From: an uncultured Actinomycetes bacterium
GTDB lineage: Bacteria > Actinomycetota > Thermoleophilia > Gaiellales > JAICJC01
Direction of reading: 5' to 3'
Assembly (NCBI GenBank): GCA_963805545.1
Contig: CAWDUU010000004.1
Coordinates: 13,255-77,254 of the forward strand
Length of the DNA: 64,000 nt
This document shows, piece by piece, positions 860 to 34,067 of this stretch. The notes under the pieces were generated by a model. That model did not search any database, was not told where the DNA came from, and saw nothing but the letters and a program-made list of their open reading frames with translations. Both the position numbers and the translations under genes were made by a program. Each line of letters begins with the position of its first letter. The first letter of the stretch is position 1.

Positions 860-928
860 AGGACTGAGCGTGAGTCTCGGCCGAATCACACCACGTCTGC
901 GGCCCAACCCGCCCCCTACCTCGCTCGT

Positions 929-2067: not shown

Positions 2068-2074
2068 GCGGCGG

Positions 2075-2836: not shown

Positions 2837-2846
2837 CAGGGCAATC

Positions 2847-3176: not shown

Positions 3177-3269
3177 GACCGCATGGTATCGCGCACACGC
3201 TATCCTCGCCAGACGGCCGCGTCCCGGCGGGGCGCAACCCGGGCCGCGGATGCCCCGTCAGTTGCCTCG

Positions 3270-4499: not shown

Positions 4500-4503
4500 C
4501 GGC

Positions 4504-17013: not shown

Positions 17014-17024
17014 AGCGCCCGGTG

Positions 17025-18362
17025 CTACGGCGTCGGCACCTGGTGGATGCCGACCGTCCCGGACTGGGCCTCCGCCAGGTACGGGAACACCGTGTCGAAC
17101 GACTCGTCGTTTCGCTGCACGCCGTCGGACGCCGAGTTGGCGATGGCGGGGGTGTCGGTGGCACCCGCCAGGGCGCGAAGCTCGATGTCGGTGACGTCGT
17201 CCAGCGGCCGGCGGCCGTTGGGGAATCCGGCGGTGTCGCCGCCGAGGACGCCCAGCGGGCTCTCGTGCCCGATGGCCGCCGGGTCGATGCCGGTGTTCAG
17301 GCGCAGCATGTCGGCGTGCACCTTGCCGGTGAAGTTGAGGCCGGGCAGGCCGGTCTCGAGGATCGCCAGGATGTCGTTGCGCGGGGTGTGCGTGTCACCC
17401 AGTGCAGCGGCGAGCTGGGGGGCCTTGAAGAACTGGTCGAACTGGCCGTCCCGGTTCGGGTCGACGTGGTTCCAGCGGTCCTTCTGCCCCAGCGGGATCA
17501 GCACCTCGTTCACGAGCGGGTTGCCGAGGCGCTCGATCTGCACCCAGCTGCCGCGGCCGGCGCCCGTGAGCTCGTTCGTGAAGGACTGCCGCTCGGTCTC
17601 GGCGTACATGCCGATCGTCGGGTGGCCCTTCTTGACGAGCTTGGACTTCGGGATCTGGAGGGCGATCGCCTGGACGTTCATCCCGCCGAGCGTGTCCTTG
17701 GCCACGCCCTTGGGCTTCACATGGAGGCTGTCGCCGATGTCGCCGAGCCCGAGGAAGAACGGGTCGTCGGACTGGCCCGCCCACACCTTCCCGCCGTGGC
17801 CGGCGAGGGGCTTCACGCCCAGCTTGACGAGCTGGGGATAGTTGGGCATCGAGGCCGGGCCGACGTTGTTCGGCACCGTCTTCAGGTTCCTGGCCAGATG
17901 CACCGTGCCGGCCGGCTTGCCCCTCTTGCCGAAGGTCAGCCGGTCGACCGAGTAGGTCTGGTAGACGTTCAGGCCCGGGTCGGAGAGCGACGTGACCGGG
18001 TTGCCCGGGATGTTGTAGAGGAACGTGCCCCTGTTGCGCACGTGCGTCCGGAACACCACGCGGTAGGCGATGTCGGTGCGGGCGTCGCCGTTCCGGTCGA
18101 TATTGAACTGGTAGCGGACGTGCTGTCCGAACCCGTAGTAGTTGGGGGCGTCACCGGGGTTCTCGAGCGGATTGGCCGTCATGACCAGGTTGATCTTGCT
18201 CGGATCCTTCTGATCGACCCACATGAACGTGTCCGCGAGGTCGGCCACCGGATCGTTCGAGATCAGCGGGGCCTCGCGGTGGCTCGACGCGGCTGCGGGG
18301 GAGGCGGTCATCGCCGCCGCCGCAAGGCCGGTGAGCCCGAGGGTGACTACGCGCTTCAGCAT
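17025..18362 (-). CDS. Secreted DUF4331-domain protein
   Basis: Signal peptide then SSHREAP, GQSDDPFF, QIERLGNPLVNEVLIP, GFPNGRRPLDDVTDI. Confidence 0.88.
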   Translation of the reverse strand: MLKRVVTLGLTGLAAAAMTASPAAASSHREAPLISNDPVADLADTFMWVDQKDPSKINLVMTANPLENPGDAPNYYGFGQHVRYQFNIDRNGDARTDIAYRVVFRTHVRNRGTFLYNIPGNPVTSLSDPGLNVYQTYSVDRLTFGKRGKPAGTVHLARNLKTVPNNVGPASMPNYPQLVKLGVKPLAGHGGKVWAGQSDDPFFLGLGDIGDSLHVKPKGVAKDTLGGMNVQAIALQIPKSKLVKKGHPTIGMYAETERQSFTNELTGAGRGSWVQIERLGNPLVNEVLIPLGQKDRWNHVDPNRDGQFDQFFKAPQLAAALGDTHTPRNDILAILETGLPGLNFTGKVHADMLRLNTGIDPAAIGHESPLGVLGGDTAGFPNGRRPLDDVTDIELRALAGATDTPAIANSASDGVQRNDESFDTVFPYLAEAQSGTVGIHQVPTP

Positions 18363-18419
18363 CGGAGACGTGTGTCCTTTCGTTCGAAGGGGGACGGAGA
18401 GGCCTCGTCGATGCCGGCT

Positions 18420-18446
18420 ATTCGGCCCGTCCCCGGAAACGGTTCG
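18420..18446 (-). promoter_or_regulatory. ECF (SigK-like) promoter CGAACC-N15-CCGAAT
   Basis: Minus strand CGAACC-GTTTCCGGGGACGGG-CCGAAT; resembles the mycobacterial SigK consensus CCATCC-N15-CCGAA. Confidence 0.55.
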
Positions 18447-18479
18447 GACACCCGCCGGGGCTGCTATCGTCACCGCCGC

Positions 18480-18647
18480 ATGAGCGCGGGCCGAGCGGCA
18501 ATGTGGATCATCGCGTCGGGCATCGCCCTGGCCGGGGTCGTCGTGTTCGCCGTGAACGGCCTCGACGGCATCCCGGGCGAGTGGTGGGGCGTCGCGGTCG
18601 GGGCGCTCCTGTGCGCGACGGCCTTCGGGCTGGGCTACGCCGAGTAG
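18480..18647 (+). CDS. Small two-TM membrane protein
   Basis: 55-aa hydrophobic ORF MSAGRAAMWIIASGIALAGVV... Confidence 0.55.
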   Translation: MSAGRAAMWIIASGIALAGVVVFAVNGLDGIPGEWWGVAVGALLCATAFGLGYAE

Positions 18648-18651
18648 CGCC

Positions 18652-18684
18652 GTAACGATCCCGGAACGCCCGCTCCGGGATACT
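18652..18684 (+). promoter_or_regulatory. Direct-repeat operator GTAACG-N5-GGAACG plus -10 (GATACT), site A
   Basis: Near-identical to 31482..31513 on the minus strand; 9 nt before ATG 18694. Confidence 0.65.
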
Positions 18685-18693
18685 TCCCGGTAG

Positions 18694-19899
18694 ATGCCGC
18701 GGAGGACATCTGAGACGTGGATCGTGTGGGCGATCGTCGGGATCGTCGTCGCGATCGACGCCGGCGCGGTCGTGCTCGGCATCCTCGACCGCGACGCCCA
18801 GTCGCTCGCCGCGACGATCATGTTCTCGCCGACGACGATCGGCTTTGCGGCCTTCGGAGCGCTGATCGTCTGGAGGCACCGGGCGCACTCCATCGGCTGG
18901 CTCTTCGTCGCCGTGGCGTTCTTCTTCTCGACGTGCCACAACCTGGCGCAGAACTACGCCGTCTACACGCTGGTCGTCGATCCCGGGTCGCTGCCCGCAG
19001 GGAAGGCCGCGTTCTGGCTCGCCTCGGGGGCCCTCGACACGGTCTACGTCGGCGCGATGCTGCTGCTGCTCCTGCTCTTCCCCGACGGCCGGCCGCTCAC
19101 CCCGCGCTGGCGGCCGGTGGTGGGTGCGGCGATTCTGGGGTCGGCCTGCGGGCTGAGCCAGGGCGCTCTCGACTTCACCAGCGAGCCGCCGCTCCAGGCG
19201 GTTCACAATCCGCTGGCGGTCTCCGGGGGCCTCGAGACGGCGTTCGAGGCGATGCGGGCGGTTGGACTGCCGCTCACGATCCTCGCGCTCCTCGGCGGCG
19301 TCGCCGCGATGGTGGTGCGGTTCCGCCGCTCGGCCGGCGTCGAGCGCCAGCAGATGAAGTGGGTGGTCGCCGGGGTCCTCATCTGGACGGCGCTCTTCAC
19401 GGCGAGCGTCGCACTCTCCGCCGCAGGCGCCGGCGGGCTCCAGAGCTTCTCGTTCCTGCTCTCGATCGTCCTCTTCCCCGCGGTGATGGGGCTCGCCATC
19501 CTGCGCTACCGCCTCTACGACATCGACGTCGTGATCCGAAGGACGCTGGTCTACACCTGCCTCGTCGCCATCCTGGGAGGCATCTATCTCAGCGGGATCG
19601 CGCTGCTCGGCTCGCTCTCGCTGTCGGTCACCGGGCAGTCCGGCGAGGTCGCGGTCACGGTGACGACGCTCGTCGTGGCGCTCGCCTTCCAGCCCCTGCG
19701 GCGGCGAATCCAGCGGGCGATCGACCGCCGCTTCTCACGCCGCACCGTCGACGCCGAGACCGCGATGCGGGCCTTCTCCGGGCGGCTGCGCGAGGAGGTG
19801 GATCTCGACGCCCTCTGCGGCGAGCTGCTGGGCGTCGTCGAGCACACCTTCCAGCCCCGCCACGCGAGCGTGTGGCTCAGGCCGCCGGAGCAGGCGTGA
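18694..19899 (+). CDS. Stand-alone multi-TM sensor-like protein ending in a truncated GAF-like segment (paralog A)
   Basis: About 9-10 TMs, FPDGRP, QQMKW, RYRLYDIDVVIRRTLVY, FQPLRRRIQRAIDRRF, REEVDLDALCGEL...ASVWLRP. Confidence 0.75.
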   Translation: MPRRTSETWIVWAIVGIVVAIDAGAVVLGILDRDAQSLAATIMFSPTTIGFAAFGALIVWRHRAHSIGWLFVAVAFFFSTCHNLAQNYAVYTLVVDPGSLPAGKAAFWLASGALDTVYVGAMLLLLLLFPDGRPLTPRWRPVVGAAILGSACGLSQGALDFTSEPPLQAVHNPLAVSGGLETAFEAMRAVGLPLTILALLGGVAAMVVRFRRSAGVERQQMKWVVAGVLIWTALFTASVALSAAGAGGLQSFSFLLSIVLFPAVMGLAILRYRLYDIDVVIRRTLVYTCLVAILGGIYLSGIALLGSLSLSVTGQSGEVAVTVTTLVVALAFQPLRRRIQRAIDRRFSRRTVDAETAMRAFSGRLREEVDLDALCGELLGVVEHTFQPRHASVWLRPPEQA

Positions 19900-21076
19900 C
19901 GGCCTCCGCGACCAGTTCTGCCGGATGGACGATGCGCAGGTCGGCGCGCCCCAGGCGCCGAAGCGCCGCCTGAAGCTGGACGGCACAGCCGGGGTTGGCG
20001 GTCGCGATCATGTCGGGCTCGGCGGCCAGGATGGCGCGCGCCTTGCGCTCGCCCAGCTCGCGCGCGGTCCGGGGCTGGACGAGGTTGTAGATCCCCGCCG
20101 ACCCGCAGCACGTTCCCGCGTCCTCGATCTCGACGAGCTCGACGCCGGGGATGGCGCGCAGCAGCCCGCGCGGCTGTGCGGCAACGCCCTGGGCGTGGTT
20201 CAGGTGGCAGGCGTCCTGGTAGACGACGCGGGTCGGCTGGAGCGGCCCGCGGGCTGCGACCGGCCCGAGCTCGGCGAGGAGCTCCGTGACGTCGCGTACG
20301 GCCGCGGCGAAGCGGTGCGCCTCCTCCGTCCCGAGCAGCTCGCCGTAGCCCTTCATCGCCGAGCCGCATCCGGCCGCCGTGACGACGATCCGGTCGTGGC
20401 CCGCGAACGCGGCGACCGTCGCGGCCGCCCGCCGGCGCGCCTCCCGCTCGCGGCCCGCATGGAGCGCGAGGGCGCCGCAGCATCCCTGGCGGGGCGGCAC
20501 GACGACCTCGCACCCGTCTGCCGCCAGCGCCTGCGCCGCCGCCCGGTTCACGCGGCCGAAGAGCGCGCGCTGGACGCAGCCCTCGAGCAGGGCGGCCGTC
20601 ATCCGCCGCTCGCCGCGGGCCGGCGTCGTGCGGTCGGGCGCGGCGCGCAGGTCGGCCGGCCGGACGCGCGGGGCGAGCGCAAACGGCCGGATGCCGAGCG
20701 CGAGCGGCCACGAGAGCGCGCGCAGGAGCCGCGGCCTCGGCACCGTGGCGAAGATCGCCGTGTCGAGCGCGCGGGCCCACGGGCTCCGCGGCGCCCGCTC
20801 CCGCCGCTCGGCCCGGGTGCGCTCGATCAGGACGTCGTAGCGGACGCCGCTCGGACAGGCCGGGACGCACGCCATGCAGCCCAGGCAGCGGTCGAAGTGG
20901 CGCGCCGCGGACGGGCCCCACTCCAGCTCGCCGCTCTCCAGAAGCGACATGAGGTGGATGCGGCCGCGGGGCGAGTCGGACTCGTCGCCCCACAGCCCGT
21001 ACGTCGGGCATGCCGGAAGGCAGAACCCGCAGTGGACGCAGGTGTCGAGCAGCTCCCGGGTCGAGGCCTCAGCCAC
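19877..21076 (-). CDS. glcF: Glycolate oxidase iron-sulfur subunit
   Basis: CVHCGFCLPACP and CLGCMACVPACP ferredoxin motifs, two CCG domains, YQDACHL. Confidence 0.85.
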   Translation of the reverse strand: MAEASTRELLDTCVHCGFCLPACPTYGLWGDESDSPRGRIHLMSLLESGELEWGPSAARHFDRCLGCMACVPACPSGVRYDVLIERTRAERRERAPRSPWARALDTAIFATVPRPRLLRALSWPLALGIRPFALAPRVRPADLRAAPDRTTPARGERRMTAALLEGCVQRALFGRVNRAAAQALAADGCEVVVPPRQGCCGALALHAGREREARRRAAATVAAFAGHDRIVVTAAGCGSAMKGYGELLGTEEAHRFAAAVRDVTELLAELGPVAARGPLQPTRVVYQDACHLNHAQGVAAQPRGLLRAIPGVELVEIEDAGTCCGSAGIYNLVQPRTARELGERKARAILAAEPDMIATANPGCAVQLQAALRRLGRADLRIVHPAELVAEAVTPAPAA

Positions 21077-21836
21077 CGAACGCCTCGATTACCCGCTGCT
21101 CGAGCTGCAACACAGGGGCCTGGCCCCGTTGTTGCACGTCGGCGTGGAGGAGGCCGCGGGCCAGGCGGCCGACGATGCGCGTCGCGCCCGCCGTGCGCAG
21201 GTCGTCGATCGCCGCGGGGACGCCGGCGGGGAGCGAGCGGTGGGCGGGCAGGCCGGCGGCCAGCTCCCGGTGCCCGGCCCAGAGCTCCTCGTCGTCCACA
21301 ACGATCTCGCCGCCGACCAGCGCCTGGGCCTGCTGGGCGAGCTCGGCCGCGGCCGGGCTCTCGAAGCGGACGAGCATGTGGCCCGGCGGCCAGGCGTACT
21401 CGACGCAGGCCGGAGCGAGCGGCTCAAGCACGAGCGGGTCGCAGGGATCGGCCACGACCGTGCATGTCGCCGCCGGCAGCGGATGGAGGCGAACGCAGAC
21501 GCGCTCGATCGATCCCAGCCGCCCTTCGGAGCCGACGACGAGCCGCGGCAGGTCGTACCCGGCGACGTTCTTCACCACGCGGCCGCCGCCGTGGACGACC
21601 GAGCCGTCGCCGAGCCGGAGCGCCACCCCGAGCAGCAGGTCGCGGGGCGGGCCGTAGCCGTGGGAGCGCGGTCCCGTCACGGCCGCCGAGAACGCGTCGG
21701 CGACGGCCAGGCGCTCGGCCCCCGGCGGGTCGAGGGCCAGCATCTGGCCCCGCTCGGCCAGCGTCCCGCCCAGGTCGCCCAGGGTGACCGCGCCGCCGAC
21801 GACCGCGGTCAGGTCGCCGGGCTCATGCTCGATCAG
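21069..21836 (-). CDS. glcE: Glycolate oxidase FAD-binding subunit (probable CTG start)
   Basis: EHEPGDLTAVV, RDLLLG, GGRVVKNVAGYDLPRLVVGSEGRLG; no canonical start at the expected N-terminus, CTGA overlap with glcD stop. Confidence 0.75.
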   Translation of the reverse strand: MIEHEPGDLTAVVGGAVTLGDLGGTLAERGQMLALDPPGAERLAVADAFSAAVTGPRSHGYGPPRDLLLGVALRLGDGSVVHGGGRVVKNVAGYDLPRLVVGSEGRLGSIERVCVRLHPLPAATCTVVADPCDPLVLEPLAPACVEYAWPPGHMLVRFESPAAAELAQQAQALVGGEIVVDDEELWAGHRELAAGLPAHRSLPAGVPAAIDDLRTAGATRIVGRLARGLLHADVQQRGQAPVLQLEQRVIEAFGG

Positions 21837-23266
21837 AAGCGTTCCGCCACCCCCTCGCGCTCCAGCGGATGGCGCCGGTACGGCCCCGGCACCTCGCCGC
21901 AGAGCCGGGGCGTCGGCAGGAGCTTCCCCGGGTTGCAGAGCCCCTCCGGATCGAACGCCGCGCGCAGCCTGCCCATCGCCGCGAGGTCGCCCTCCGAGAA
22001 CATCCACGGCATCGAGCACACCTTGTCGACGCCGATCCCGTGCTCGCCGGTGAGCGATCCGCCCGCCTCGACGCACGCCTCGAGGATCTCGGCGGCCAGC
22101 TTCTCGGCCCGCTCCGCCTCGCCCTCGACGGCCGCGTCGTAGAGCACCAGCGGGTGCAGGTTGCCGTCGCCGGCGTGGAAGACGTTCCCCACGCGCAGGC
22201 CGTACCGGCCGGAGAGCTCCGCGATCCGGCGCAGCGTCTGCGGCAGGCGCGTGCGCGGGACGACGCCGTCCTGCACGTAGTAGTCGGGGCTCACCCGGCC
22301 CATCGCGGCGAAGGCGGCCTTGCGCCCGTACCAGAGCGTGGCCCGCTCGCGGTCGTCGCCGGCCACCCGCACCTCGGAGGCCCCGCCCGCCGCGCACAGC
22401 TCCTCGACCCGCCCCAGGCTGAGCGCGACCTCGGCCGCCGGGCCGTCGAGCTCGACGAGCAGCACGGCCCCGGCGTCGCGCGGCAGCCCCGCGTGGACGG
22501 CGTCCTCGGCGGCCTGGATCGTGAGCGCGTCCATCATCTCGACGGCCGCGGGGACGATGCCGGCGCCGATGATCGCCGAGACGACCTCGCCGGCGGCGTC
22601 GGTCGACGGGAACGCGGCGAGCAGGGTCTCGACCCGCTGCGGCCGCGGGACCACCCGGACGACGATCTCGGTTGCGATCCCGAGCGTGCCCTCCGACCCG
22701 ACGAAGACCCCGGCCAGGTCGAGCCCGTCGTCGCGGCCGAGCCGCACGGCCTCGCCGTCGGCCAGCACGACCAGGAGCTCGAGCACGTGGGTCGAGGTGA
22801 AGCCGTACTTGAGGCAGTGCGCACCGCCCGAGTTCTCGGCCACGTTGCCGCCGATCGTGCACACCTGCTGGCTCGAGGGGTCGGGCGCGTAGAAGAGGCC
22901 GTGGGCGGCGACCGCGCGGGTCACGTCGAGGTTCGTGACCCCCGGCTGCACGCGCACCCGCCGGTTGGGGACGTCCACATCCAGCACGCGGTTCATCCGG
23001 GCGAGGCCGATCACGATGCCCTCCGCGACCGGCACCGCGCCGCCGGAGAGGCCGGTGCCCGCCCCCCGGGCGACGAACGGGGCCCCGTGCCCGCGGCATA
23101 CCCGGACGGCCGCCTGCACCTCCTCGGTGGTGCGAGGCAGGACGACGGCCTGCGGCACGGCCCGGTGGCCCGTCAGGCCGTCGCATTCGTACGTCCGCAG
23201 CTCGGCCGGCTCCGAGACGACGGCGTCCGAGCCGAGCGCGCGCTCCAGGTCGGCGACCAGGGTCAC
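21833..23266 (-). CDS. glcD: Glycolate oxidase FAD-linked subunit
   Basis: RGAGTGLSGGA, PDPSSQQVCTIGGNVAENSGG, FHAGDGNLHP, GEHGIG, LCNPGK. Confidence 0.9.
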   Translation of the reverse strand: MTLVADLERALGSDAVVSEPAELRTYECDGLTGHRAVPQAVVLPRTTEEVQAAVRVCRGHGAPFVARGAGTGLSGGAVPVAEGIVIGLARMNRVLDVDVPNRRVRVQPGVTNLDVTRAVAAHGLFYAPDPSSQQVCTIGGNVAENSGGAHCLKYGFTSTHVLELLVVLADGEAVRLGRDDGLDLAGVFVGSEGTLGIATEIVVRVVPRPQRVETLLAAFPSTDAAGEVVSAIIGAGIVPAAVEMMDALTIQAAEDAVHAGLPRDAGAVLLVELDGPAAEVALSLGRVEELCAAGGASEVRVAGDDRERATLWYGRKAAFAAMGRVSPDYYVQDGVVPRTRLPQTLRRIAELSGRYGLRVGNVFHAGDGNLHPLVLYDAAVEGEAERAEKLAAEILEACVEAGGSLTGEHGIGVDKVCSMPWMFSEGDLAAMGRLRAAFDPEGLCNPGKLLPTPRLCGEVPGPYRRHPLEREGVAERF

Positions 23267-23275
23267 GCGCTCAGA

Positions 23276-24445
23276 CTAGAGCAGCGTGTCGCCGACGTAC
23301 CCGCCGGCCCGGCAGCCGGGCGGCACCGCGAAGACCGCGCTTCCGGTGTGGACGAGGTACTCGCCCAGGAGGTCGTGCTCGGCGAGCCGGTGCTGGATCG
23401 GGACGAACTGGCGGCGCGGGTCGCGCTGGAACGCGGCGAAGAAGAGGCCGGCGTCGAGCTTCCCGCCGGGCATGAGCCCGTCGTCGAACGAGTAGCCGCG
23501 GCGCAGGATCCGCTCGGCCTCGCTGCCCGCGGCGCGCGGGTTGGCCAGCATGATGTGGCTGTGGCGCGGCTCAAGCGCCGGCACGACCGGCGTGAACTCC
23601 GAGCGGGCGCCGAACGGCGCGCCCGACACCTTGCGCCGGCCGACGTCGGTCTCCTGCTCGTCCAGGTCGCTCGCGTCCCAGCGCTCGATGCGGATGCGGA
23701 TGCGGCGGGTGACCAGGTAGGTGCCGCCCCGCATCCACGCCGGCTCGTCGCCGCTTGCGACCCACACGTTGCGGCGCATCGCGGCGGCGTCGGAGGCGTC
23801 GAGGTTGTTGGTCCCGTCCTTGAAGCCCATCAGGTTCCGGCCGGTGCGGCCGTCCGGGGCGGAGTCGAACCCCGCCTGCGACCAGCGCCCCGCCGCGACG
23901 CCGCGCCCGATTCGCGCGAGCGTGCGGACGGCATGGAACGCGACCTGCGGGTCGTCGGCGCAGGCCTGCACGGCGAGGTCTCCGCCGCTCCGGGCCGCAT
24001 CGAGCCGGTCGCCGCGGAACGCGGGCAGGGCGGCGAGCGCCGCCGGCCGCTCGGCCCGCAGGCCGAACCGGCCGTCGAAGAGCGACGGCCCGAGCCCGAT
24101 CGTCACCGTGAGGCGCGACGCCGGAAGGCCGTACGCCTCGCCCGTGTCAACCGGAGCCGAGGCCGGGTCGCCGCCGACAGGGCCGACGGGATCGCCGGCG
24201 CACATCCGCGCGGCGGCGTCCGACCAGGCGCGCAGGAGCGCCGCGAGATCCGCCCGCGACCCGGAGACGTCGAAGGCCGCAAACCGCAGGTGCGCCTGGA
24301 GCGGCGTCGTGATGCCGCCCTGGTGGCGGCCGTGGAACGGGAGGCGCGCGCCCCGGGAGGCACCGGCGGCCGGCGTCGTTCCGGCGATCACACCGCCGGC
24401 GGCCAAGCCGGCGCTCGCGAGCAACCTTCGTCGCGTCGTGCCCAC
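23276..24445 (-). CDS. Tat-exported Dyp-type (EfeB-like) heme peroxidase
   Basis: TRRRLL Tat signal, GFKDGT, HSH...ILRRGYSF, FAAFQRD. Confidence 0.88.
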   Translation of the reverse strand: MGTTRRRLLASAGLAAGGVIAGTTPAAGASRGARLPFHGRHQGGITTPLQAHLRFAAFDVSGSRADLAALLRAWSDAAARMCAGDPVGPVGGDPASAPVDTGEAYGLPASRLTVTIGLGPSLFDGRFGLRAERPAALAALPAFRGDRLDAARSGGDLAVQACADDPQVAFHAVRTLARIGRGVAAGRWSQAGFDSAPDGRTGRNLMGFKDGTNNLDASDAAAMRRNVWVASGDEPAWMRGGTYLVTRRIRIRIERWDASDLDEQETDVGRRKVSGAPFGARSEFTPVVPALEPRHSHIMLANPRAAGSEAERILRRGYSFDDGLMPGGKLDAGLFFAAFQRDPRRQFVPIQHRLAEHDLLGEYLVHTGSAVFAVPPGCRAGGYVGDTLL

Positions 24446-24454
24446 GCGCAGACT

Positions 24455-26986
24455 TTACGCCATCAGCTGCTTCATGACCATCTGGAGCAGGCCGCCGTCG
24501 CGGTACACCTTGACGTCGGCCGGCGCGTCGAGCCGGGCGAGGCACGTGAACGAGCGCGCGCCGCCGTCCACCTCGACCGTGACATGCGAGCCGACGTCGA
24601 GCTCGGCCAGCCCGCGGATGGTGTACGTCTCGGTGCCGTCGAGCCCGAGGCTCGCGGCCGACTCACCCTCGGCGAACTGGAGCGGGATCACCCCGAGCGC
24701 GACCAGGTTCGAGCGGTGGATGCGCTCGTAGCTCTCGGCGATCACAGCCCGCACGCCGAGCAGCGCCGAGCCCTTGGCGGCCCAGTCGCGGGAGCTGCCC
24801 GAGCCGTACTCGCGGCCGGCGATGACGACCAGCGGCACGCCCTCGGCGCGGTAGCGCTCGGCGGCGTCGTAGATCGTCGTTTCCTCGCCCGACGGCAGGT
24901 GGCGGGTGAAGCCGCCCTCGCGCTCGACGAGCGCGTTTCGCAGCCGGATGTTCGCGAACGTGCCCCGCACCATCACCTCGTGGTTTCCGCGCCGGGCGCC
25001 GTAGGAGTTGAAGTCGCGCGGCTCGACGCCGTGCTCGACCAGCCACCGCCCGGCCGGCGTCCCGGGCGCGAACGCCCCGGCCGGCGAGATGTGGTCGGTC
25101 GTGACCGAGTCGCCGAGGAGCGCGAGGACGCGCGCATCCACGATGTCCGACAGGTCGGCGTCGTGCGCGAAGAAGGCCGCCTCGCGCACGTAGGTCGAGT
25201 CCGGGTCCCAGGCGTAGAGCTCGCCCTCGGGCACCGGCAGGCCACGCCACCGCTCGTCGCCCTCGAAGATGCGGCCGTACTCGTCGGTGAAGAGGTCGGG
25301 CGAGAACGACGCGGCCAGGGCGTCGCTCACCTCGTCCGCGGTCGGCCACACGTCGCGCAGGAAGACCGGCCCGTCGGTGCCCTCGCCGAGCGGCTCGGTG
25401 GTGAGGTCGGCGTTCACCGTACCGGCGAGCGCATAGGCCACCACGAGTGGCGGCGACGCGAGGTAGTTGGCGCGCACCGCCGGGTGGATGCGGGCTTCGA
25501 AGTTGCGGTTCCCCGAGAGCACGGCGGCGACCTTCAGGTCGTCGCGCTCGATGGCGCCGGCCACCTCGTCGGGCAGCGGGCCCGAGTTCCCGATGCAGGT
25601 CGTGCACCCGAACCCGACCAGGTTGAAGCCGAGCGCCTCGAGCGGCTCCATGAGCGCAGCCTTGCGCAGGTAGCCGATCACGACGCGCGAGCCCGGAGCC
25701 AGGCTGGTCTTCACCCAGGGCTTCGTCGTGAGGCCGCGCTCGACCGCCTTTCGGGCCACCAGGCCCGCGGCGATCATGAGCGCGGGATTCGACGTGTTCG
25801 TGCACGAGGTGATCGCCGAGATCACCACCGACCCGTCGCCGAGGCCGGCGCCGTTCCGGCCGGCCCCGAACGCGTCGGCGAAGCTGTCGCCCACGCGCGG
25901 TAGCGGCACCCGGTCCTGCGGCCGGCGGGGGCCGGCCAGGCTCGGCTCGACGGCCGAGAGGTCGAAGTCGAGCGTCTCGGTGTAGGCCGGCTCGGCCTCG
26001 GAGCCGGTGTGGAAGAGGCCCTGCTCCTTCGTGTAGCGCTCGACCAGCTCGACGTGCTCGGGCGCGCGGCCGGTGTCGCGCAGGTAGCGCAGCGTCTCGC
26101 CGTCGACCGGGAAGGTCGAGGCGGTGGCCCCGAACTCCGGCGACATGTTCGAGATCGTGGCCCGGTCGGCCACGGTCAGCGAGCCGAGGCCGGGTCCGAA
26201 GAACTCGATGAACTTGCCGACCACGCCGTGCTTTCGCAGCCGCTCGGTCATCGTGAGCACGAGGTCGGTGGCCGTGACACCGCTCTGGAGCGCGCCCGAG
26301 AGCCGCACGCCGACCACCTGGGGGGCGGTCATGTAGATCGGCTGGCCGAGCATCACGGCCTCGGCCTCGATGCCGCCGACACCCCAGCCGAGCACGCCGA
26401 GCGCGTTGATCATCGTCGTGTGCGAGTCGGTTCCCACCAGCGTGTCGGGCATCGCGACCCCGTCGCGCACCGTCACGACGGAGCCCAGGTACTCCAGGTT
26501 CACCTGGTGGACGATCCCCATCCCCGGAGGGACGACCCGGAAGTTCCCGAACGCGCCCTGGGCCCAGCGCAGGAGCGCGTAGCGCTCGCCGTTCCGCGCG
26601 TACTCGTGCTCGATGTTGCGCTCGTAGGCGGCGCCGTTTCCGAACGCGTCCACCTGCACCGAGTGGTCGATCACGAGGTCGACCGGCACCTGCGGGTCGA
26701 CGCGGGACGGGTCGCCGCCGCGGCGCGCGACCGCCGAGCGGAGCGCGGCCAGGTCGACGACGGCCGGGACGCCGGTCAGGTCCTGCATGATCACCCGGGC
26801 GGGCATGAACGCGAGCTGTGCGCCCTCGGCCGGCGCCGGCCAGTTGGCAAGCGCCTGGACGTCCGCGTCGGTCACGTGCTCGGTCCCCCGGCGGCGCACC
26901 AGGTTCTCGAGGAGGATGCAGACGGTGTAGGGCAGCCGTGACGGGTCCGCCACTGAGTCGATGCGATGGATCACCTCGTCCGCCAC
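24455..26986 (-). CDS. acnA: Aconitate hydratase A
   Basis: [53 protein letters not shown]; TAGGCT 7 nt before GTG. Confidence 0.95.
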
Positions 26987-27009
26987 GCCCCGCAGCCTAG
27001 CCGCGGGGA

Positions 27010-28440
27010 CTACTTCAATACGCTGCGGAGCGCCGCCTGCGCCGCGTACCAGCCGCACATCCCGTGGACGCCGCCGCCCGGGGGCGTCGAGGACGAGCAG
27101 AGGAAGATGCCGGGGTCGGGGGTCGCGTGCGGCACGGGCCGAAGCGCGGGCCGGGCCAGGAGCTGGCGCAGGTCGGCGAGGCCGCCGTTGATGTCGCCAC
27201 CGACGTAGTTCGGGTTCTTCGCCTCGACGTCCGCCGGACCCATCGTGTGCCGCGCCGCGACCACGTCGCGGAAGCCGGGCGCGAACCGCTCGATCTGGCG
27301 CTCGATCGCCGCGGTCATGTCGGCATCGGAGCCGTTCGGAACGTGGCAGTACGCCCACAGCGTGTGCGACCCGGCCGGAGCGCGGGCCGGGTCGAAGAGG
27401 CTCGGCTGGGCGACGAGGACGTAGGGCCTCGCCGGCGTCCGGCCCGCCGCCACCTGGGCCTCCGACGCGGCCAGCTCGGCCATGGTGCCGCCGACGTGCA
27501 CGGTGCCGGCCCGGCGGCAGCCCTCCGCCGTCCACGGCACCGGCTCGTGCAGCGCGTAATCCACCTTGAAGACGCCCGGCCCGTACCGGAACCGCTCGAG
27601 CGCGCGCCGGTAGCGCCCCGAGAAGCGCCCGTCCGCGATCCGGAGCAGCGCCCGCGGCGTCACGTCGAGCAGCACGGCCCGGGCCGGCGGCAGCTCCCGC
27701 AGCGACGTGACGGGGCGGCCGGTCTCGATCTCGCCGCCCAGCGCGCGAAGGAGCGACGCCATGGAGCCGGAGACGGCGCGCGACCCGCCGGCGGCGACTG
27801 GCCAGCCGACGGCGTGCGCGAGCATGACGAGCAGGAGCGCGAACGCCCCCGTCCCGGGTGCCGTGAGCGGCCGCATCGAGTGGGCGGCGTTCCCGGCCAG
27901 GAGCGCTCGGGCCGGGTCGCCGCCGAAGCGGCGCCGGGTGAGGCCCGAGACGGAGCGCAGGCCGAGCGCGGCGAACCGGGCCGCCGGCAGCGGGTGGCGC
28001 GGAGGACGCAGCGGGGGTCCGAGCAGGAGGCCCGCCAGCTCGTCCCAGTCGCGGACGAGCGGGCCCAGCAGCCGCTCGTAGGCGCGGCCGTCGGCGCCCA
28101 GGCCCGCGGCCGTCTCGGCCAGCGAGCGGTGCAGCGCCACCGCCCGGCCGCCGTCGAGCGGGTGCGCCAGCGGCAGGTCGGGGTGGACGACCTCCAGGCC
28201 GTGCTCGGCGAGCGGCAGCGACGAGAGGAACGGCGAACCCAGCAGCAGCGGATGGACAGCCGAGCAGACGTCGTGCAGGTGGCCCGGGAGCGTGAGCTCC
28301 TCGGTGCGGGTGCCGCCTCCGATCGTGGCCTCTCCCTCGATCACCCGCACCGACCGCCCGGCCTGCGCGAGCGCGATCGCCGCGGCCAGGCCGTTCGGCC
28401 CCGATCCGACGACGATCGCGTCGAGCGCTTCCTCAGGCAC
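27010..28440 (-). CDS. Phytoene-dehydrogenase-like NAD(P)/FAD oxidoreductase
   Basis: [49 protein letters not shown]. Confidence 0.88.
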
Positions 28441-29167
28441 GCCGGAACGGCCTGGTCATGAGCCTCATCGGCGCCATGGCCGTGTACATACCCGACCGGA
28501 TCCCCGCGTTGTGCCACACGTTCCCGGCCTTCCCCCACTGGCGGCGGCGGTCGACGCACACCGCCTCGGTGGTCACCTCGCCCTCGACGCCGAACGCCGC
28601 GGCCAGCGACCGGAGCGTGTGCGCCCAGTGGCGGTCCTCCTGGCTGTGGCCGCCGAGGGTCATCCCCATCTCGTAGAGCGGGTCGGACGCCCGCATGAGG
28701 ACGTGCGCCTGGGCGGCCGTCACGCCGCCGTCGTCGAACGCGCTGAAGGTGATCCAGCCGGCGAACATGTGCCCCTCCGGCGTCATGAGCGTGAACGACT
28801 CCTCGTCGGCGTAGAGCACGAGCACGCCGGTCGAGAGCTTGAGCCGGCCCGGCATGGTCAGGTCGAGCACCGCCACCTCGCCGGGCGCGATGCCGGCCAG
28901 CGGCGCGAAGAAGCGGTTGCCCTTCGGCCAGAAGCTGGGGAAGTCGCGCTTCCACACCTCGATGACCTCGGCCGGCCCCACGTCGGCCCCCTCGAGCCGG
29001 ATGCGGTACGTCTTCTGCCACATCCGGCCGAACCCCTGCACCGGCGAGGTCGGGCGGCGCCCGGCCACGTTGATCCCCGACGACCCGGGCTCGACGCCGG
29101 TCACTTCGAGATGGACGACCGGCTTCGCCCAGGCGTCGCCGTCGCGCTGTGCGCGCTCATCGGACAT
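28433..29167 (-). CDS. Hypothetical protein (DUF1990-like fold suspected), last gene of the partner-switching operon
   Basis: Ordered 244-aa ORF (FTLMTPEGHMFAGWITF); operonic position. Confidence 0.6.
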   Translation of the reverse strand: MSDERAQRDGDAWAKPVVHLEVTGVEPGSSGINVAGRRPTSPVQGFGRMWQKTYRIRLEGADVGPAEVIEVWKRDFPSFWPKGNRFFAPLAGIAPGEVAVLDLTMPGRLKLSTGVLVLYADEESFTLMTPEGHMFAGWITFSAFDDGGVTAAQAHVLMRASDPLYEMGMTLGGHSQEDRHWAHTLRSLAAAFGVEGEVTTEAVCVDRRRQWGKAGNVWHNAGIRSGMYTAMAPMRLMTRPFRRA

Positions 29168-29185
29168 GGTCTCGTTCCTTTCTGG

Positions 29186-29539
29186 TCAGGCGGCCGCGGC
29201 GATCGCCTCGGACTCGCTCCCGTGGATCGCGATCGCCTCGTCCAGCCGCGTCAGCTGGAAGATCTGGCGGTAGTGCTCGGTCAGGCCGAACGCCATGAGC
29301 CGCTGCTTCTGGCGGTTGGCGCGAACGAGCAGGGTGACGAGCAGGCCGATCCCGCTCGAGTTCATGTACTCGAGGTCTGAGAAGTTGAGGACGACCCAGC
29401 GGGTGTGGTCGCCGCTGGCGCGCCCGTAGGCGTCCATCAGCACTCCCTCGCTGGCGGCCGTCACCTCGCCGGCGATGTCGATCACGCTCGCGCGGTCGCT
29501 CGGCGTCCGCACCGTCATCGAAACCGTGGTCTCGGTCAT
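29186..29539 (-). CDS. STAS-domain anti-anti-sigma factor
   Basis: LNFSDLEYMNSSGIGLLV phosphorylatable-Ser motif, IFQLTRL. Confidence 0.9.
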   Translation of the reverse strand: MTETTVSMTVRTPSDRASVIDIAGEVTAASEGVLMDAYGRASGDHTRWVVLNFSDLEYMNSSGIGLLVTLLVRANRQKQRLMAFGLTEHYRQIFQLTRLDEAIAIHGSESEAIAAAA

Positions 29540-29883
29540 CTCGTGCTCCCCTCCGGGGCGGGCGCCCCAGCCTCGATGGTCATGAAGTCGGACAGGCGGG
29601 TGATCTCGAAGATCTCCCGGTAGTGGGCGGTGAGGCCGCGGGCCGTCACGGGCACGCCGGCCCCCCGGGCCCGGCCCAGGAGCCCGACGATGAGCGCGAT
29701 GCCGGTCGAATTGATGTACGGCACCGCCGTGAAATCGAGCGTGAGCGACGCGGCGCCGGCGGCTGCCGCCTCGCTGTAGGCCCGGTCGAGGGCCGCCCCG
29801 GCGTCGCGGTCGACGTCGCCGGTCAGCAGAAGCGTCGCAGCGCCGCCGCTCACGTCCACCTTCACCTCAAGCGCGGTCGTCAT
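29536..29883 (-). CDS. STAS-domain anti-anti-sigma factor
   Basis: LDFTAVPYINSTGIALIV, IFEITRL. Confidence 0.9.
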   Translation of the reverse strand: MTTALEVKVDVSGGAATLLLTGDVDRDAGAALDRAYSEAAAAGAASLTLDFTAVPYINSTGIALIVGLLGRARGAGVPVTARGLTAHYREIFEITRLSDFMTIEAGAPAPEGSTR

Positions 29884-31472
29884 CTCGGTCTCCTTCCAGG
29901 CGCATCACGAGCCGGGTGGTGTGGTGCTCGTCGTCGCCGAGCACGTCCAGGTCGTCCACCATGTTCCGGATCAGGAAGAGCCCCCAGCCGCGCGGCGTCT
30001 GCTCGCCGGCGAGCTTGGCGTCGATGTCCGGCTCGGGGGCGTCGGGCATCGGCCGCGCCGAGCCCCGGTCGGTGACATCGACGCGGAGCGCGTCCGCGGT
30101 CGCGGACGAGCCGGATGTCGACCGGCAGCTCGGGCCGGAACCCGTTGCCGTGCTCCATCGCGTTCATGACCGCCTCGGCGACGGCCGTCTTCATCCGCTC
30201 GAGCCGGGCGCCGGACAGGCCGGCCGCCGCGAGCGCCGGCTCGAGCCGGCGGATCGCCTCGCGCTCGTTCCCGGGCTCGCTCGCAACCGAGACCTCGGCC
30301 AGGGCAGCGGCGGGGCCCGCCTCGCGGCGGATCGCGACGAGCGTGATGTCGTCCTCCTGCTCGGCACCGGGCGCGGCGAACGCGCCGAGCGCGGCGATCA
30401 GCGTCCCCAGGAGCGCCTCGCCCGCCCGCCCGCCCGCCTCGGCCATGACGGCCGCCAGGCGGTCGCCGCCGAACATCTGCCGGTCGGCGTCGTGCGCCTC
30501 GGTCACCCCGTCGGAGTAGAGCAGGAGGTGCGCGCCGGGATCGAGGACGGCCTCGGTCTCCTCGTAGGTCATGCCCGGCATGAGCCCGAGCGGCATCCCG
30601 CGCGCCATGTGCTCGGTGACGATGCCCGCGGAGGCCACCATCGGCAGGTTGTGGCCGGCGTTTGCGAACACCAGCCGGCCCGTGTCGAGCTCGAGCACGC
30701 CGTAGAGGCAGGTCACGAACATGTTCTGCGGGATGTCGGGGACGAGGTGCTCGTTCACCCGCTCGAGCACCGCGCCGGGCTCGACCAGTCGCTGGGCTGA
30801 GGCGCGAAGCACGCTCCGCGTGGCGGCCATCACGAGGGCCGCCGGGACGCCCTTGTCGGTCACGTCGCCGACCACGATCCCGAGCCGGCCGTCGGGCAGG
30901 TCGATGAAGTCGTAGAAGTCGCCGCCCACCTCCCGGGCCGGCCGGTAGTCGGCTGCGACGCTCCACCCCGCGGCCTCCGGCAGCGAACGCGGCAGGAAGT
31001 TCTGCTGGATGAGGCGGGCGACGGCGAGCTCCTGCTCGATCCGCTCCCTGCTTCGGATCTCGGCCTCCTGCTCGCGCACGAGCTGGCCGACACGGACGGC
31101 CGGGGCGGCCTGCGCGGCCAGGCTCTCGAGCAGGCGGCGGTCGTCGCCGGAGTACTCCTGGTCGGAGAGCCGCGGCCCGAGGTTGAGAAGCCCGATCAGC
31201 TCGCCCTGGGTCACGAGGGGGACGACCAGCTTCACGCCCGCCGCCCGCATGGCGTCGAGGGCCGGCGACTCGAGCTCGAGCGCCTCGATGTCGACGGCGC
31301 CGGCCGCGCTCTGGAAGAACGGGATGATGGGGTCGTTCGGCGCGATGTCGACCGGCATGGAGCTCGGCGCGAGCGCGCGCGGTGGCGGCTCCTCGGCCAC
31401 CGAGGCGGCGACGGCCGGAGCGATGCGCCCGCGGGAGACGATGCGGCGAAGGCTGTGGGCAACCGAGCTCAT
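29867..31472 (-). CDS. Half-GAF + PP2C/SpoIIE phosphatase + RsbW-like HATPase fusion; apparent frameshift near 30104
   Basis: VPLVTQGELIGLLNLG...LAAQAA, EVGGDFYD, GDVTDKG, YSDGVTEA, DDITL, AVAEAVMNAMEHGN; HATPase C-terminus (RVDVTDRG, GWGLFLIRNMVD) continues in another frame to stop 29867. Confidence 0.85.
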
Positions 31473-32626
31473 GACAGACCCGTTGTACCGGGCGGGCGTT
31501 CCGGGTTCGTTACGGGCCGCAGCCAGACTCCGGCATGGGCCGGCTGCACCGTGCCGGCGATGGTCTGGAGGAGCTCGCCGCACAGCGCGTCGAGGTCGAG
31601 CTGCTCTCGCGCGCGGGCGCTGAACGCGGCCACCGCACCCTGCGCGTCGTACCCCGAGCGGAAGAAGCGCCTGTCCACCGTTCGCTGGATCCGCCGCCGG
31701 AGCGGCTGGAAGGCGGCCGCCACCGCGAGCGTCGAGACCGTGACGGCGACCGTCCCCGACGAGCCCGAGACGGTGCGCAGGAGCGCGCCGACCAGCGTCA
31801 CGCCGCCGAGATAGACGCCCGCGAGCACCGCGACCAGCATCGCGTAGACGAGCGTCTTTCGGATGATCACGTCGACGTCGTAGAGCCGGTAGCGCAGCAT
31901 GGCGAGGCCGACCGAGAGCGGGAGCAGCGCGTAATCGAGCGCGTACAGGGCCTCGCGGGGCGAGACGATCGAGATCACAAAGAAGCCCACGAAGGCGGCA
32001 CAGGCCGCGAAGACGCACTCGCGGATCTGGAGGCGCTGGGTCGCCGCGGCGCGCCGGTAGCGAAGGACCGCCGAGGCCAGGCCCGCCGCGATCAGGGCGG
32101 CGACGAGCACCCCGGTCGCGACGACGAGCGGCTGCGGAGGCGAGCCGGAGACGCCCGCGAACGCCGCGATCCACACGATCGCGGCGATGTCGGCGCGGAG
32201 AAGCAGCCGCCATCGCGGCCCCGGCGGCCGGCCGTCCGGGAAGAGCAGCGGGACCAGGAGCGCGTACGCGGCGAGCCCGGACACCCATGTCCAGCTGGAG
32301 AGCCAGTCGGCGACGGCCGCGCCGGGTGCCCCGCTCGGGTGCCTGTCGCCCGCCCACCCGGCGTAGACGCCGGTCGAGACGGCGACCGCGACCAGCACCG
32401 GGGCGGCGCAGAAGATCCATCCGATCGGATTCCGCGGCTCGCGGCGTGCGATCAGGACGCCCAGCGTGGCCATTCCCTGCATCACCGCGCCGAAGAGCAG
32501 GGCATCGAGGACGTTTGCGACGGCCAGGCCGGCCTCCGTGCCGACGAAGATGCCGGTGGCCAGGAGCAGGCCAAGCGTCGCGAACCAGGCCGCCGCCGCG
32601 AGCCGCGGCGTGGAGCGGCCGCTCAC
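31469..32626 (-). CDS. Stand-alone multi-TM sensor-like protein ending in truncated GAF-like segment (paralog B)
   Basis: NPIGW, FPDGRPPGPRWR, RYRLYDVDVIIRKTLVY, REQLDLDALCGEL...AGVWLRP; ATGA overlap with phosphatase gene. Confidence 0.75.
   Translation of the reverse strand: MSGRSTPRLAAAAWFATLGLLLATGIFVGTEAGLAVANVLDALLFGAVMQGMATLGVLIARREPRNPIGWIFCAAPVLVAVAVSTGVYAGWAGDRHPSGAPGAAVADWLSSWTWVSGLAAYALLVPLLFPDGRPPGPRWRLLLRADIAAIVWIAAFAGVSGSPPQPLVVATGVLVAALIAAGLASAVLRYRRAAATQRLQIRECVFAACAAFVGFFVISIVSPREALYALDYALLPLSVGLAMLRYRLYDVDVIIRKTLVYAMLVAVLAGVYLGGVTLVGALLRTVSGSSGTVAVTVSTLAVAAAFQPLRRRIQRTVDRRFFRSGYDAQGAVAAFSARAREQLDLDALCGELLQTIAGTVQPAHAGVWLRPVTNPERPPGTTGLS
31482..31513 (-). promoter_or_regulatory. 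Direct-repeat operator GTAACG-N5-GGAACG plus -10-like TACAAC, site B, inside the 3' end of paralog B
   Basis: CGTAACGAACCCGGAACGCCCGC matches site A CGTAACGATCCCGGAACGCCCGC at 22/23; 9 nt before phosphatase ATG. Confidence 0.65.
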
Positions 32627-33864
32627 CGTCCCGCCTCCGGCAACCGCAGCCAGAGCGAGACGTGCGCCGGCTGGAGCGTCTCGCGGACGACGTCGAGCAC
32701 CTCGCCGCTCACGGTCTCGATGTCCACCTGCTCCCGCAGCCGCCCGCTGAACGACTCAAGCGTGCGGGCCGCGTCGTAGCGGCCGCGGTAGAAGCGGTGG
32801 TCGACCGCCCGCTGGATGCGCACCCGGAGGGGCTGAAACGCCGCGGCGACCGCCAGGGTCGAGACCGTGACGCCGATCGCGCCCGACCCACCCGTGATGC
32901 TCCGCAGGGCGCCCCCGACCAGGGTCACGCCACCGAGATACAGCGTCGCCAGAACCGCGACGAGCACCGCGTAGACCAGCGTCCGCCTGATGATGACGTC
33001 GATCTCGTAGAGGCGGTAGCGGAGCACCGCGAACACGATCGCGATCGGTATCAGCGCGAAGCTGAGCAGCGCGAACGTCTGGGCGGCGACGAGCCAGCCG
33101 GGCGGATCCTGCGCCGACGGATCGAGCAGCGGAGAGAGCGGCTCGACGACGGCATAGGTGGAGGCCACCGCGGCCGCCGCCGCGGCCAGCCATTTCAACT
33201 GCTGGCGCTGGGCGCCTCGTGCGCCGCGGAAGCGTACGACCAGGCTCGCGGCCGACGCCACCATCATCGCGGGAACGACCAGGATCGAGAGTCTGGCGGC
33301 ATCGAGCACCGATCGCAGGGAGTCGATTCCGGCGGGGTTCCGGACGTGCGGGTATCCGGCGTCGCTGAGCGGCCCGGGGGCGAACGTCACGCAGAGGAGG
33401 CCGACCACGATCGCCGCGGCGCTCGTCCATGCCACGTACCGCCAGCGCCGGCCCGGGAGATGGCCGTCGGGGAAGAGGAGTATCAGGAACGTCCCGGTAA
33501 GCCCGACGGCCGGCAGCCAGAATCCCTCGCCCACGACCGCGACGGCGATGGCGCCGGGAAGGTCGTGGTGCAGCTTGATCGCGTAGTCGGAGTAGGACGT
33601 GCCGAGCGCCAGCCCCCACGCCACTCCGATCGCGAGCAGGAGCCAGCCGATCGGGTTCTCCGGCCGGCGAGCGGCCAGGAGCCAGCCCGCGGCGGGGTAG
33701 GTGAACATCGCGAGGACGAAGGCGATCCCCGCCCAGGCCCCGCCGCCGGACCAGCTGCCGGACTGCACGGCGTCGCGGGCCAGGACGCCGAAGACCACGG
33801 AGAACGCGCACATCGCGGCGCACACCGCGAAGATGGCCGTCGCCAGGCTGCGCCGGGCCCTCAC
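32623..33864 (-). CDS. Stand-alone multi-TM sensor-like protein ending in truncated GAF-like segment (paralog C)
   Basis: NPIGW, FPDGHLPGRRWR, QQLKW, RYRLYEIDVIIRRTLVY, REQVDIETVSGEV...VSLWLR; GGAGG RBS before GTG 33864 (alternative ATG 33945). Confidence 0.75.
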   Translation of the reverse strand: MRARRSLATAIFAVCAAMCAFSVVFGVLARDAVQSGSWSGGGAWAGIAFVLAMFTYPAAGWLLAARRPENPIGWLLLAIGVAWGLALGTSYSDYAIKLHHDLPGAIAVAVVGEGFWLPAVGLTGTFLILLFPDGHLPGRRWRYVAWTSAAAIVVGLLCVTFAPGPLSDAGYPHVRNPAGIDSLRSVLDAARLSILVVPAMMVASAASLVVRFRGARGAQRQQLKWLAAAAAAVASTYAVVEPLSPLLDPSAQDPPGWLVAAQTFALLSFALIPIAIVFAVLRYRLYEIDVIIRRTLVYAVLVAVLATLYLGGVTLVGGALRSITGGSGAIGVTVSTLAVAAAFQPLRVRIQRAVDHRFYRGRYDAARTLESFSGRLREQVDIETVSGEVLDVVRETLQPAHVSLWLRLPEAGR

Positions 33865-33986
33865 CGCTCCGCCTCCGGCGAGGTCGGCCGGGGCGGCGCG
33901 ACGGATGACCGGCTGGCGTTCGGGCAGCTCATCGACGTTCAGCATCTTCCATCTCGGCCACGGGGGCAACACGCTGCATTGGCCGA

Positions 33987-34018
33987 ATCCTCGCCCGCCA
34001 CCGTCCTGGGAACGTTAC
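33987..34018 (-). promoter_or_regulatory. Direct-repeat operator GTAACG-N5-AGGACG plus -10 GAGGAT, site C, in the divergent region next to the SARP gene
   Basis: Same repeat spacing and 9-nt gap to the -10 as site B; overlapping GGAACG repeats on the plus strand. Confidence 0.55.
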
Positions 34019-34067
34019 GGAACGAGCGGCACCCGACTCGATCGTCACGCTCTGCCATACTCGCCCC

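Follow-up and report, generated by a model that had tools for sequence, protein, structure and literature searches.

The window analysed here, that is, the whole stretch of 64,000 nucleotides (contig C4, positions 13255-77254 of a 14-contig assembly; genome 3.86 Mb, 72% GC), belongs to an uncultured actinobacterium of the Thermoleophilia/Gaiellales type and carries three genes for related membrane sensors (sensors A, B' and C), a gene for a GAF-SpoIIE(PP2C)-HATPase_c_2 phosphatase and, divergent from sensor C, a gene for a large AfsR-like regulator of the SARP family (Table 1). Sensor A, the phosphatase and sensor C are each preceded by a copy of the same short direct-repeat element, hereafter the box, which is almost certainly a genuine conserved promoter element. 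The protein that binds the box and activates the regulon of sensor and phosphatase genes is probably the SARP encoded at 34068-36788; this had been proposed in an earlier, sequence-only reading of the same DNA, and the proposal is supported by the enrichment of the element, by its conservation in orthologs and by the published rules for SARP operators, from which we infer both the binding and the direction of its effect.

The three boxes of the window and their promoter geometry

The sequence-only reading had described the pattern GTAACG-N5-RGRACG at three places in the window, each followed after 9-10 nt by a -10-like hexamer, and all three positions and strands are borne out: site A, at 18652-18668 on the forward strand, reads GTAACGATCCCGGAACG; site B, at 31497-31513 on the reverse strand, reads GTAACGAACCCGGAACG; site C, at 34002-34018, again on the reverse strand, reads GTAACGTTCCCAGGACG. 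The gaps are as described, with GATACT 10 nt after site A, TACAAC 9 nt after site B and GAGGAT 9 nt after site C, where an alternative hexamer, AGGATT, is found at 10 nt. The near-identity of sites A and B, given as 22 of 23 nt, is essentially right, 23 of 24 positions being the same from CC through GCCCGC. One correction concerns site B, which is not intergenic and sits in the final 15 codons of sensor B'; the tail encoded over the site, VTNPERPPGTTGLS, is absent from the paralogs A and C.

A genome-wide scan, named in that reading as a check of its claim, finds the motif strongly enriched: the window holds three matches against 0.01 expected from 100 dinucleotide shuffles, and of the exact matches in the whole 3.86-Mb genome (n=4) three lie inside the window. 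When the genome is scored with a position-weight matrix built from the sites of relatives, the three sites reach 27-32 bits, the next best candidate having 16.7.

The fourth exact match, at C1:857646, is regarded as fortuitous, and one chance match is about what base composition predicts; it falls on a stop codon, 7 nt before the next start and with no -10 at the right spacing, in a junction which, judged by translation alone, is read as binding-protein/permease. The best sub-threshold candidate, C1:1052231 (16.7 bits), was likewise rejected, being located beside an excisionase-like gene in an apparent mobile element. On contig C3, a variant of the box (site D, GTAACG-GTGCC-GTAACC-N10-TAGCAT-N6-ATG; matrix score 13) precedes a fourth sensor paralog; site D, at C3:503085-503142, overlaps the stop of the upstream gene (TAA within GTAACG), whose product looks Lrp/AsnC-like by translation.

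The anatomy of the element was derived from 61 sites fetched from 18 genomes of the same genus. Position -1 is C and position -2 is Y (C or T) in 61/61 sites, though both had been left free by the search pattern; position +7 is T or A in all of them, positions +8 and +9 are pyrimidines, and position +10 is C in 58 of the 61, while the flanks are variable and show no constraint. Because the pattern-free positions are nearly invariant and the flanks are not, the full element can be written as YCGTAACG-WTYY-CGGRACG, that is, two heptamer direct repeats, CGTAACG and CGGRACG, with a 4-nt spacer, WTYY, between them and an 11-bp period. Its distance from the downstream hexamer is constrained as well: among 63 unique sites, a hexamer of the form nAnnnT occurs at offset 9-10 after the second heptamer in 47, and the more permissive nAnnn[TC] in 61, no such hexamer being present at offsets 4-8; start codons are often found 6-9 nt past the hexamer, an ATG or GTG at 6-7 nt in 32 of the 63. 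From their layout, these look like promoters without a -35 element, many of them giving leaderless mRNAs.

Table 1. Features of the window discussed in the text; nt, nucleotides; ORF, open reading frame; TM, transmembrane segment; GC3, G+C fraction at third codon positions
Feature	Position	Strand	Remarks
Small ORF, 48 aa, hydrophobic, 2 TM	18501..18647	+	frame-specific GC3 0.9-1.0 over 18470-18650; alternative start 18480
Operator A (putative): CGTAACG (18651-18657), CGGAACG (18662-18668), spacer ATCC	18651..18668	+	32.3 bits, top-scoring site of the genome
-10-like hexamer GATACT	18679..18684	+	10 nt after operator A, 9 nt before ATG 18694
Sensor A, 401-aa polytopic membrane protein	18694..19899	+	GC3 0.95
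Downstream genes	27010..29883	-	STAS 29536-29883; STAS 29186-29539; conserved unknown 244-aa protein 28433-29167; FAD/amine-oxidase-like protein 27010-28440 (Pfam, NCBIfam)
GAF-SpoIIE(PP2C)-HATPase_c_2 phosphatase / anti-sigma-kinase-like fusion, 530 aa	29880..31472	-	SpoIIE 7e-54, HATPase_c_2 3e-9, GAF 7e-8 (Pfam)
Sensor B', 385-aa paralog, no operator of its own	31469..32626	-	start/stop overlap with sensor C; ATGA overlap with phosphatase
-10-like hexamer TACAAC	31482..31487	-	9 nt after operator B, 9 nt before phosphatase ATG 31472
Operator B (putative): CGTAACG-AACC-CGGAACG	31497..31514	-	29.7 bits; within last 15 codons of sensor B'
Sensor C, 449-aa paralog	32623..33972	-	start uncertain: GTG 33972 or ATG 33945
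-10-like hexamer GAGGAT	33987..33992	-	9 nt after operator C; GATGAT or GACACT in orthologs
Operator C (putative): CGTAACG-TTCC-CAGGACG	34002..34019	-	27.2 bits; 48 nt upstream of SARP ATG, directed away
Probable SARP-gene promoter CCGACT-N17-CATACT	34033..34061	+	6 nt before ATG (leaderless)
Large AfsR-like SARP, 906 aa: SARP domain (predicted winged helix + BTAD), AAA_16/NOD, TPR	34068..36788	+	Pfam BTAD 4e-22, AAA_16 1e-22, TPR

Conservation of the box and of its targets

Conservation in orthologs, the second check named in the sequence-only reading, is found at all three places: the copy divergent from the SARP gene is present in 34 of the 39 genomes tabulated (SARP orthologs with identity down to 50%), and the sites before sensor A and the phosphatase are kept too, orthologs of operator A being retained in the relatives L081, L101, L106, L107 and L117. 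From the divergent copy to the SARP start there are 35-174 nt, mostly 47-56 nt, in genomes belonging to four families, and the copy is found, directed away from the gene, upstream of SARP orthologs of 50-88% identity. When the intergenic regions of 17 orthologous loci are aligned, no block but the box is conserved in full; within sub-groups, conservation extends to the -10 of the divergent gene and to the CATACT/CATGCT -10 of the SARP gene, and a CGTCACG/CGTTACG block is conserved in the alignment too.

The box is carried by 3-9 promoters per genome, and the genes following it belong to few families. Downstream of the 61 sites of the relatives there are 25 members of the sensor family, 13 phosphatases, 8 DUF6220-like proteins (small membrane proteins with four transmembrane segments), 4 small secreted proteins, which are C-terminally anchored, and a few singletons. 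In the relatives, every phosphatase site falls within the 3' end of the sensor gene before it, an arrangement seen in 13 relatives and in another family (G047), and a TACAAC or TAAAAC -10 is kept before almost all fetched phosphatase orthologs. The genome studied here has its own homolog of one target of a relative, the L077-like gene, at C3:670174, with no box upstream; that target is therefore species-specific.

Outside the genus the box is conserved across the order, one of uncultured soil actinobacteria, and the layout of the locus is recognisable as well: in other families, too, arrays of 2-5 sensor paralogs lie beside the SARP gene, and the SARP-adjacent sensor/phosphatase locus recurs in families f2 and f3. 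The arrays of G047 and G282 are followed by genes for the phosphatase, two STAS proteins and the unknown 244-aa protein, and in G047 by that for the FAD oxidoreductase too. In G226, from a different family, the SARP-adjacent box heads an operon (L150, G226:C1:1320100-1329000, positions 87-4537) encoding a 132-aa protein, an ABC ATPase, an 854-aa MacB/FtsX-type permease and a 229-aa protein, after which come another box and four sensor paralogs in tandem.

The SARP as the probable reader of the box

The domain composition of the protein is that of a large SARP: BTAD (PF03704) is matched above its cut-off at residues 95-239 (E 4e-22), where the confidence of the structural model is also high, AAA_16 at residues 265-437 (E 1e-22) and TPR_12/TPR_1 at residues 817-886. 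Residues 5-241 align with residues 13-252 of EmbR (2FEZ; E 7e-6) and residues 2-313 with the NCBIfam AfsR model (E 6e-17); against the AfsR equivalog NF053617 the score is 60.9 bits, with a cut-off of 1430, and the protein is therefore AfsR-like in architecture and not an AfsR ortholog. For the AlphaFold model of residues 1-260, in which the mean predicted local distance difference test (pLDDT) is 67 and that of the BTAD region is high, the top Foldseek matches in the PDB are the SARP domains of AfsR (8K60/8HVR) and EmbR, over 255-264 columns and with a TM-score of only 0.43-0.46; this predicted fold would loosely back the assignment to the SARP family. The putative recognition helix, RGRAALRRTLSxLRxAL, is invariant across the SARP orthologs, as is the box.

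The distribution of the box over the 301 genomes of the order follows that of the SARP. The refined 18-nt pattern, CGTAACGNWYYCRGRACG, matches 57 of the 301, and the same pattern reversed, used as a control, gives one match in total; SARP orthologs, accepted at >= 48% identity with only 3 candidates scored per genome, so that some may be missed, are found in 53. The joint counts (both, SARP only, motif only, neither) are 51/2/6/242, with a Fisher p=2.6e-48, a value which ignores phylogeny and is uncorrected for it. Both are patchily present within the genera g3, g12, g17 and g27, and this patchiness inside genera implies several independent gains or losses; near-complete genomes in which the SARP is missing (G012, 98%; G013, 91%) are also without a typical site. 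The locus genes examined encode no further protein in which a DNA-binding domain can be recognised.

Several observations weigh against the SARP as the binder. Five of the genomes with the motif and no detected SARP are fragmented or incomplete, and the sixth, G193, is 93% complete; two genomes with the SARP, G109 and G285, have no site matching the strict pattern. The sensors and the phosphatase also co-occur with the motif, so that co-occurrence alone is not specific to the SARP. On the protein side, Pfam Trans_reg_C finds no match at the N-terminus, even with E<=1 allowed; the topology predicted for the winged helix, three strands and three helices, fits, but the model is of low confidence there (pLDDT 40-66). 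As for the promoters, the TACAAC of site B has no final T; and the sequence, which occurs in soil, wetland and rice-paddy metagenomes, occurs in runs that are DNA metagenomes only, with no RNA runs, and all the genomes are metagenome assemblies. To the same side belong the resemblance of GTAAC-N6-GGAAC to the a/b sites of GlnR, gTnAc-n6-GaAAC (PMC10235972), and the presence in the genome of 17 Trans_reg_C proteins which could read 11-bp direct repeats.

The last two points would favour a real box read by another winged-helix regulator of the OmpR/PhoB type, either a GlnR-like orphan or a Trans_reg_C protein, the SARP being merely co-regulated or neighbouring; OmpR-family regulators likewise bind direct repeats of 11-bp period abutting the -10, as GlnR and PHO boxes do at the -35 region, and the failure of Pfam to recognise the winged helix of the SARP itself fits such a reading. 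We consider it unlikely. Indeed, the box is found at 3-4 sites of the genome, all of them at sensor or phosphatase genes and none at nitrogen-metabolism, phosphate or other genes; it tracks the SARP ortholog, and not a core regulator, through its patchy occurrence within genera, and adjoins it in 34 of the 39 genomes. Moreover, each promoter has a single 22-bp box, whose invariant C at -1, CG at +10/+11 and G at +5/+16 are outside the GlnR consensus; the only OmpR-type regulator of the window (Trans_reg_C, 51565-51783, reverse strand) lies 17 kb away, and no response-regulator gene is seen in the conserved SARP/sensor/phosphatase locus of the other families.

A much less probable reading, which we reject, starts from the regulon itself, since partner-switching modules usually control a sigma factor and are in many cases autoregulated. 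The components of such a module are indeed encoded here: SpoIIE (PP2C) and an RsbW-like HATPase_c_2 are joined in one protein, and the two STAS proteins match the model of anti-sigma-factor antagonists. The element would then be the promoter of an alternative sigma factor of ECF (extracytoplasmic function) or SigB/SigF type, with GTAACG or GGAAC as its -35, both of which resemble known ECF -35 motifs. The spacings are, however, wrong for this, GTAACG lying 20-21 nt and GGRACG only 9-10 nt from the -10-like hexamer, against the 15-19 nt of sigma-70-family promoters; nothing is conserved 16-17 nt past GGRACG (<0.3 bits, positions 33-38) or past either repeat, and the start codon is only ~25 nt after the box. 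Two equally conserved repeats with an 11-bp period typify a dimeric activator and not a -35 element; in addition, no cognate sigma factor was identified for the module, and the conserved locus contains no sigma factor gene.

Hardly credible, finally, is a non-regulatory similarity, be it a remnant of the duplication of the sensors, which are paralogs, or a coding constraint on the sensor tail at site B, which is translated and whose VT.PERP.GTTG recurs in relatives: it is excluded because the same 18 nt, invariant between fully diverged flanks, are also found outside coding sequence and in front of unrelated gene families (DUF6220, small secreted proteins, a lipoprotein, an ABC/MacB operon), and at a fixed distance from hexamer and start codon which remnants would not be expected to keep.

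If the SARP is the reader of the box, its mode of action may be sketched from the published systems. SARP targets contain direct repeats with a spacing of 11 or 22 bp, and 8 bp separate the 3' repeat from the -10; in the afs box, two 11-bp repeats extend from -40 to -19 and overlap a poor -35, each AfsR protomer contacting the first 8 bp of a repeat, with sigma region 4 placed on the SARP and not on the DNA (PMC10936776). Operators of this family have also been described as 22-nt units of two heptamers with 4-nt spacers, of which at least two repeats are needed (PMC5930380), and the box, with its heptamer direct repeats and 4-nt spacers, agrees with this rule. The 9-10 nt between heptamer and hexamer, measured to -10 hexamers and starts that are themselves predicted, exceed the published 8 bp by 1-2 bp; if the repeats are taken as 11-bp units beginning with the C at -1, 5-6 nt remain before the -10, which is also the figure for afsS. 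The box would be a 22-bp activator site of class-II type, each heptamer being trailed by ~4 less conserved nt, which takes the place of the -35 element and spans about -40 to -19, given the transcription start which we infer ~7 nt past the -10. Its most likely binder is the divergently encoded large SARP: one SARP domain would lie on each repeat, next to the other, and the pair would recruit or adapt the RNA polymerase carrying the housekeeping sigma factor, as AfsR does at afsS.

The regulon so predicted comprises sensor A and the operon formed by sensor C, sensor B', the phosphatase, the two STAS proteins, the unknown 244-aa protein and the FAD oxidoreductase, in which the phosphatase would have a second, internal promoter inside the 3' tail of sensor B'; the fourth sensor paralog on contig C3, with its variant box, is a probable member.

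The closest parallel is offered by AfsR of Streptomyces coelicolor (cryo-EM 8K60/8HVR; PMC10936776), which has the same SARP-NOD(AAA_16)-TPR architecture, is a top fold match and the best named sequence-family match for the N-terminal 260-313 residues, and binds a 22-bp box with two 11-bp direct repeats over the -35 position, ~6 nt before a weak -10. The identity of the SARP domains is, however, only ~29%, the repeats are CGTAACG/CGGRACG, and the apparent targets are genes for sensors, a phosphatase and membrane proteins instead of afsS or pho genes; moreover, the host is an uncultured bacterium of the Thermoleophilia/Gaiellales type, in which many target mRNAs would be leaderless. The operators of PimR, SanG and PolR (CGGCAAG, 4-bp spacers; PMC5930380) are similarly built of heptamers 4 nt apart in a 22-nt unit, with at least two repeats, beside the regulator gene; the heptamer sequence is different, the main PimR operator has three repeats and no overlap with the -35, and PimR has a single target gene, compared with the 3-9 promoters per genome found here. 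Among solved structures, the nearest in sequence is that of EmbR of Mycobacterium tuberculosis (2FEZ), a regulator with a SARP domain that acts on genes of the cell envelope and not on antibiotic clusters; this likens it to the present protein, but it has a C-terminal FHA domain where NOD and TPR are found here. EmbR is controlled through phosphorylation by PknH and is not known to have a comparably well-defined repeat operator.

Nearly all that is known of SARPs concerns the activation of antibiotic clusters in Streptomyces. The present comparison supports a regulon with a SARP operator in an uncultured lineage of the Thermoleophilia/Gaiellales type, with a set of predicted targets that is unusual for the family: membrane sensors, a partner-switching phosphatase and small envelope proteins, and in some relatives a MacB-type ABC exporter. 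The operator, the promoter architecture and the 3-9-promoter regulon of an AfsR-like SARP would in this case have been defined by comparative genomics alone, including a regulated promoter embedded within a coding tail, and the large SARPs may work in signal-transduction and envelope circuits well beyond secondary metabolism.

A further step, which is put forward only tentatively and is rather doubtful, would see the whole locus as a self-contained signalling island, in which kinase-less sensors (2-5 paralogs in tandem), the GAF-PP2C-RsbW-like fusion and the two STAS proteins feed a STAND-type SARP in place of a sigma factor, and the SARP in turn activates the genes of its own inputs via leaderless promoters without a -35, one of them in the coding tail of a sensor. 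If true, partner switching would be connected here to a transcription activator, a wiring that would be new and is kept across an order of uncultured soil actinobacteria.

Sensor, phosphatase and neighbouring genes

Sensors A, B' and C and the fourth copy on contig C3 are paralogs, and homologs, without the kinase, of the N-terminal transmembrane module of HisKA_3 histidine kinases. A full-length homolog with HisKA_3 and HATPase_c (729 aa; L124, G012:C7, 1243-3432) is found in the relative G012, where it is the single sensor homolog of a genome which has neither the SARP nor the box; the stand-alone sensors may be descendants of such kinases that have lost the kinase half.

Sensor B' is translationally coupled both to sensor C and to the phosphatase, its TGA overlapping the phosphatase ATG (ATGA, 31469-31472), and the coding frame switches between the two genes at ~31470-31520. 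The match of the phosphatase to the Pfam GAF models (residues 66-126) is confined to their C-terminal half, and the phosphatase begins just where sensor B' ends, so that the GAF domain at its N-terminus may be truncated or split. The whole reverse-strand gene string, from sensor C to the FAD oxidoreductase, is tightly packed and probably co-transcribed.

Upstream of sensor A, operator A lies 4 nt past the stop of the small ORF with two transmembrane segments. A long forward ORF covering this region (17022-18647, 541 aa) was rejected as an antisense shadow, except for its last ~50 codons, which are the separate small gene; third-position GC and Pfam assign the rest to a DUF4331 gene (E 3e-116) on the reverse strand, from 17025 to ~18400. 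A hairpin, ATCCCGG...CCGGGAT, is present at site A and in sensor-A orthologs only, and is not a general feature of the sites.

Between operator C and sensor C, an ATG at 33979 on the reverse strand stands exactly 7 nt past the -10 of the operator, which is the leaderless position in the relatives; the frame that it opens is not that of sensor C and gives an ORF of only 16 codons, which ends at 33929-33931. At this position closer relatives have a gene for a small secreted protein, which is not present in the genome studied; the short ORF may encode a leader peptide, be left over from that gene or result from a frameshift or an error of assembly.

As for the SARP gene itself, its orthologs are split or have in-frame stops in G003, G005, G010, G023, G035, G095, G109 and G259, which may be due to assembly indels or to genuine pseudogenes. 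Within the spacer of the probable SARP promoter there is a lone heptamer-like CGTCACG (reverse complement CGTGACG), at 34043-34049, which relatives have as CGTTACG or CGTTGCG; where the distance was counted, in the genome studied and in a single sequence from the L013-L020 group, 30 nt separate its start from the first heptamer of operator C, and it could be an autoregulatory half-site.

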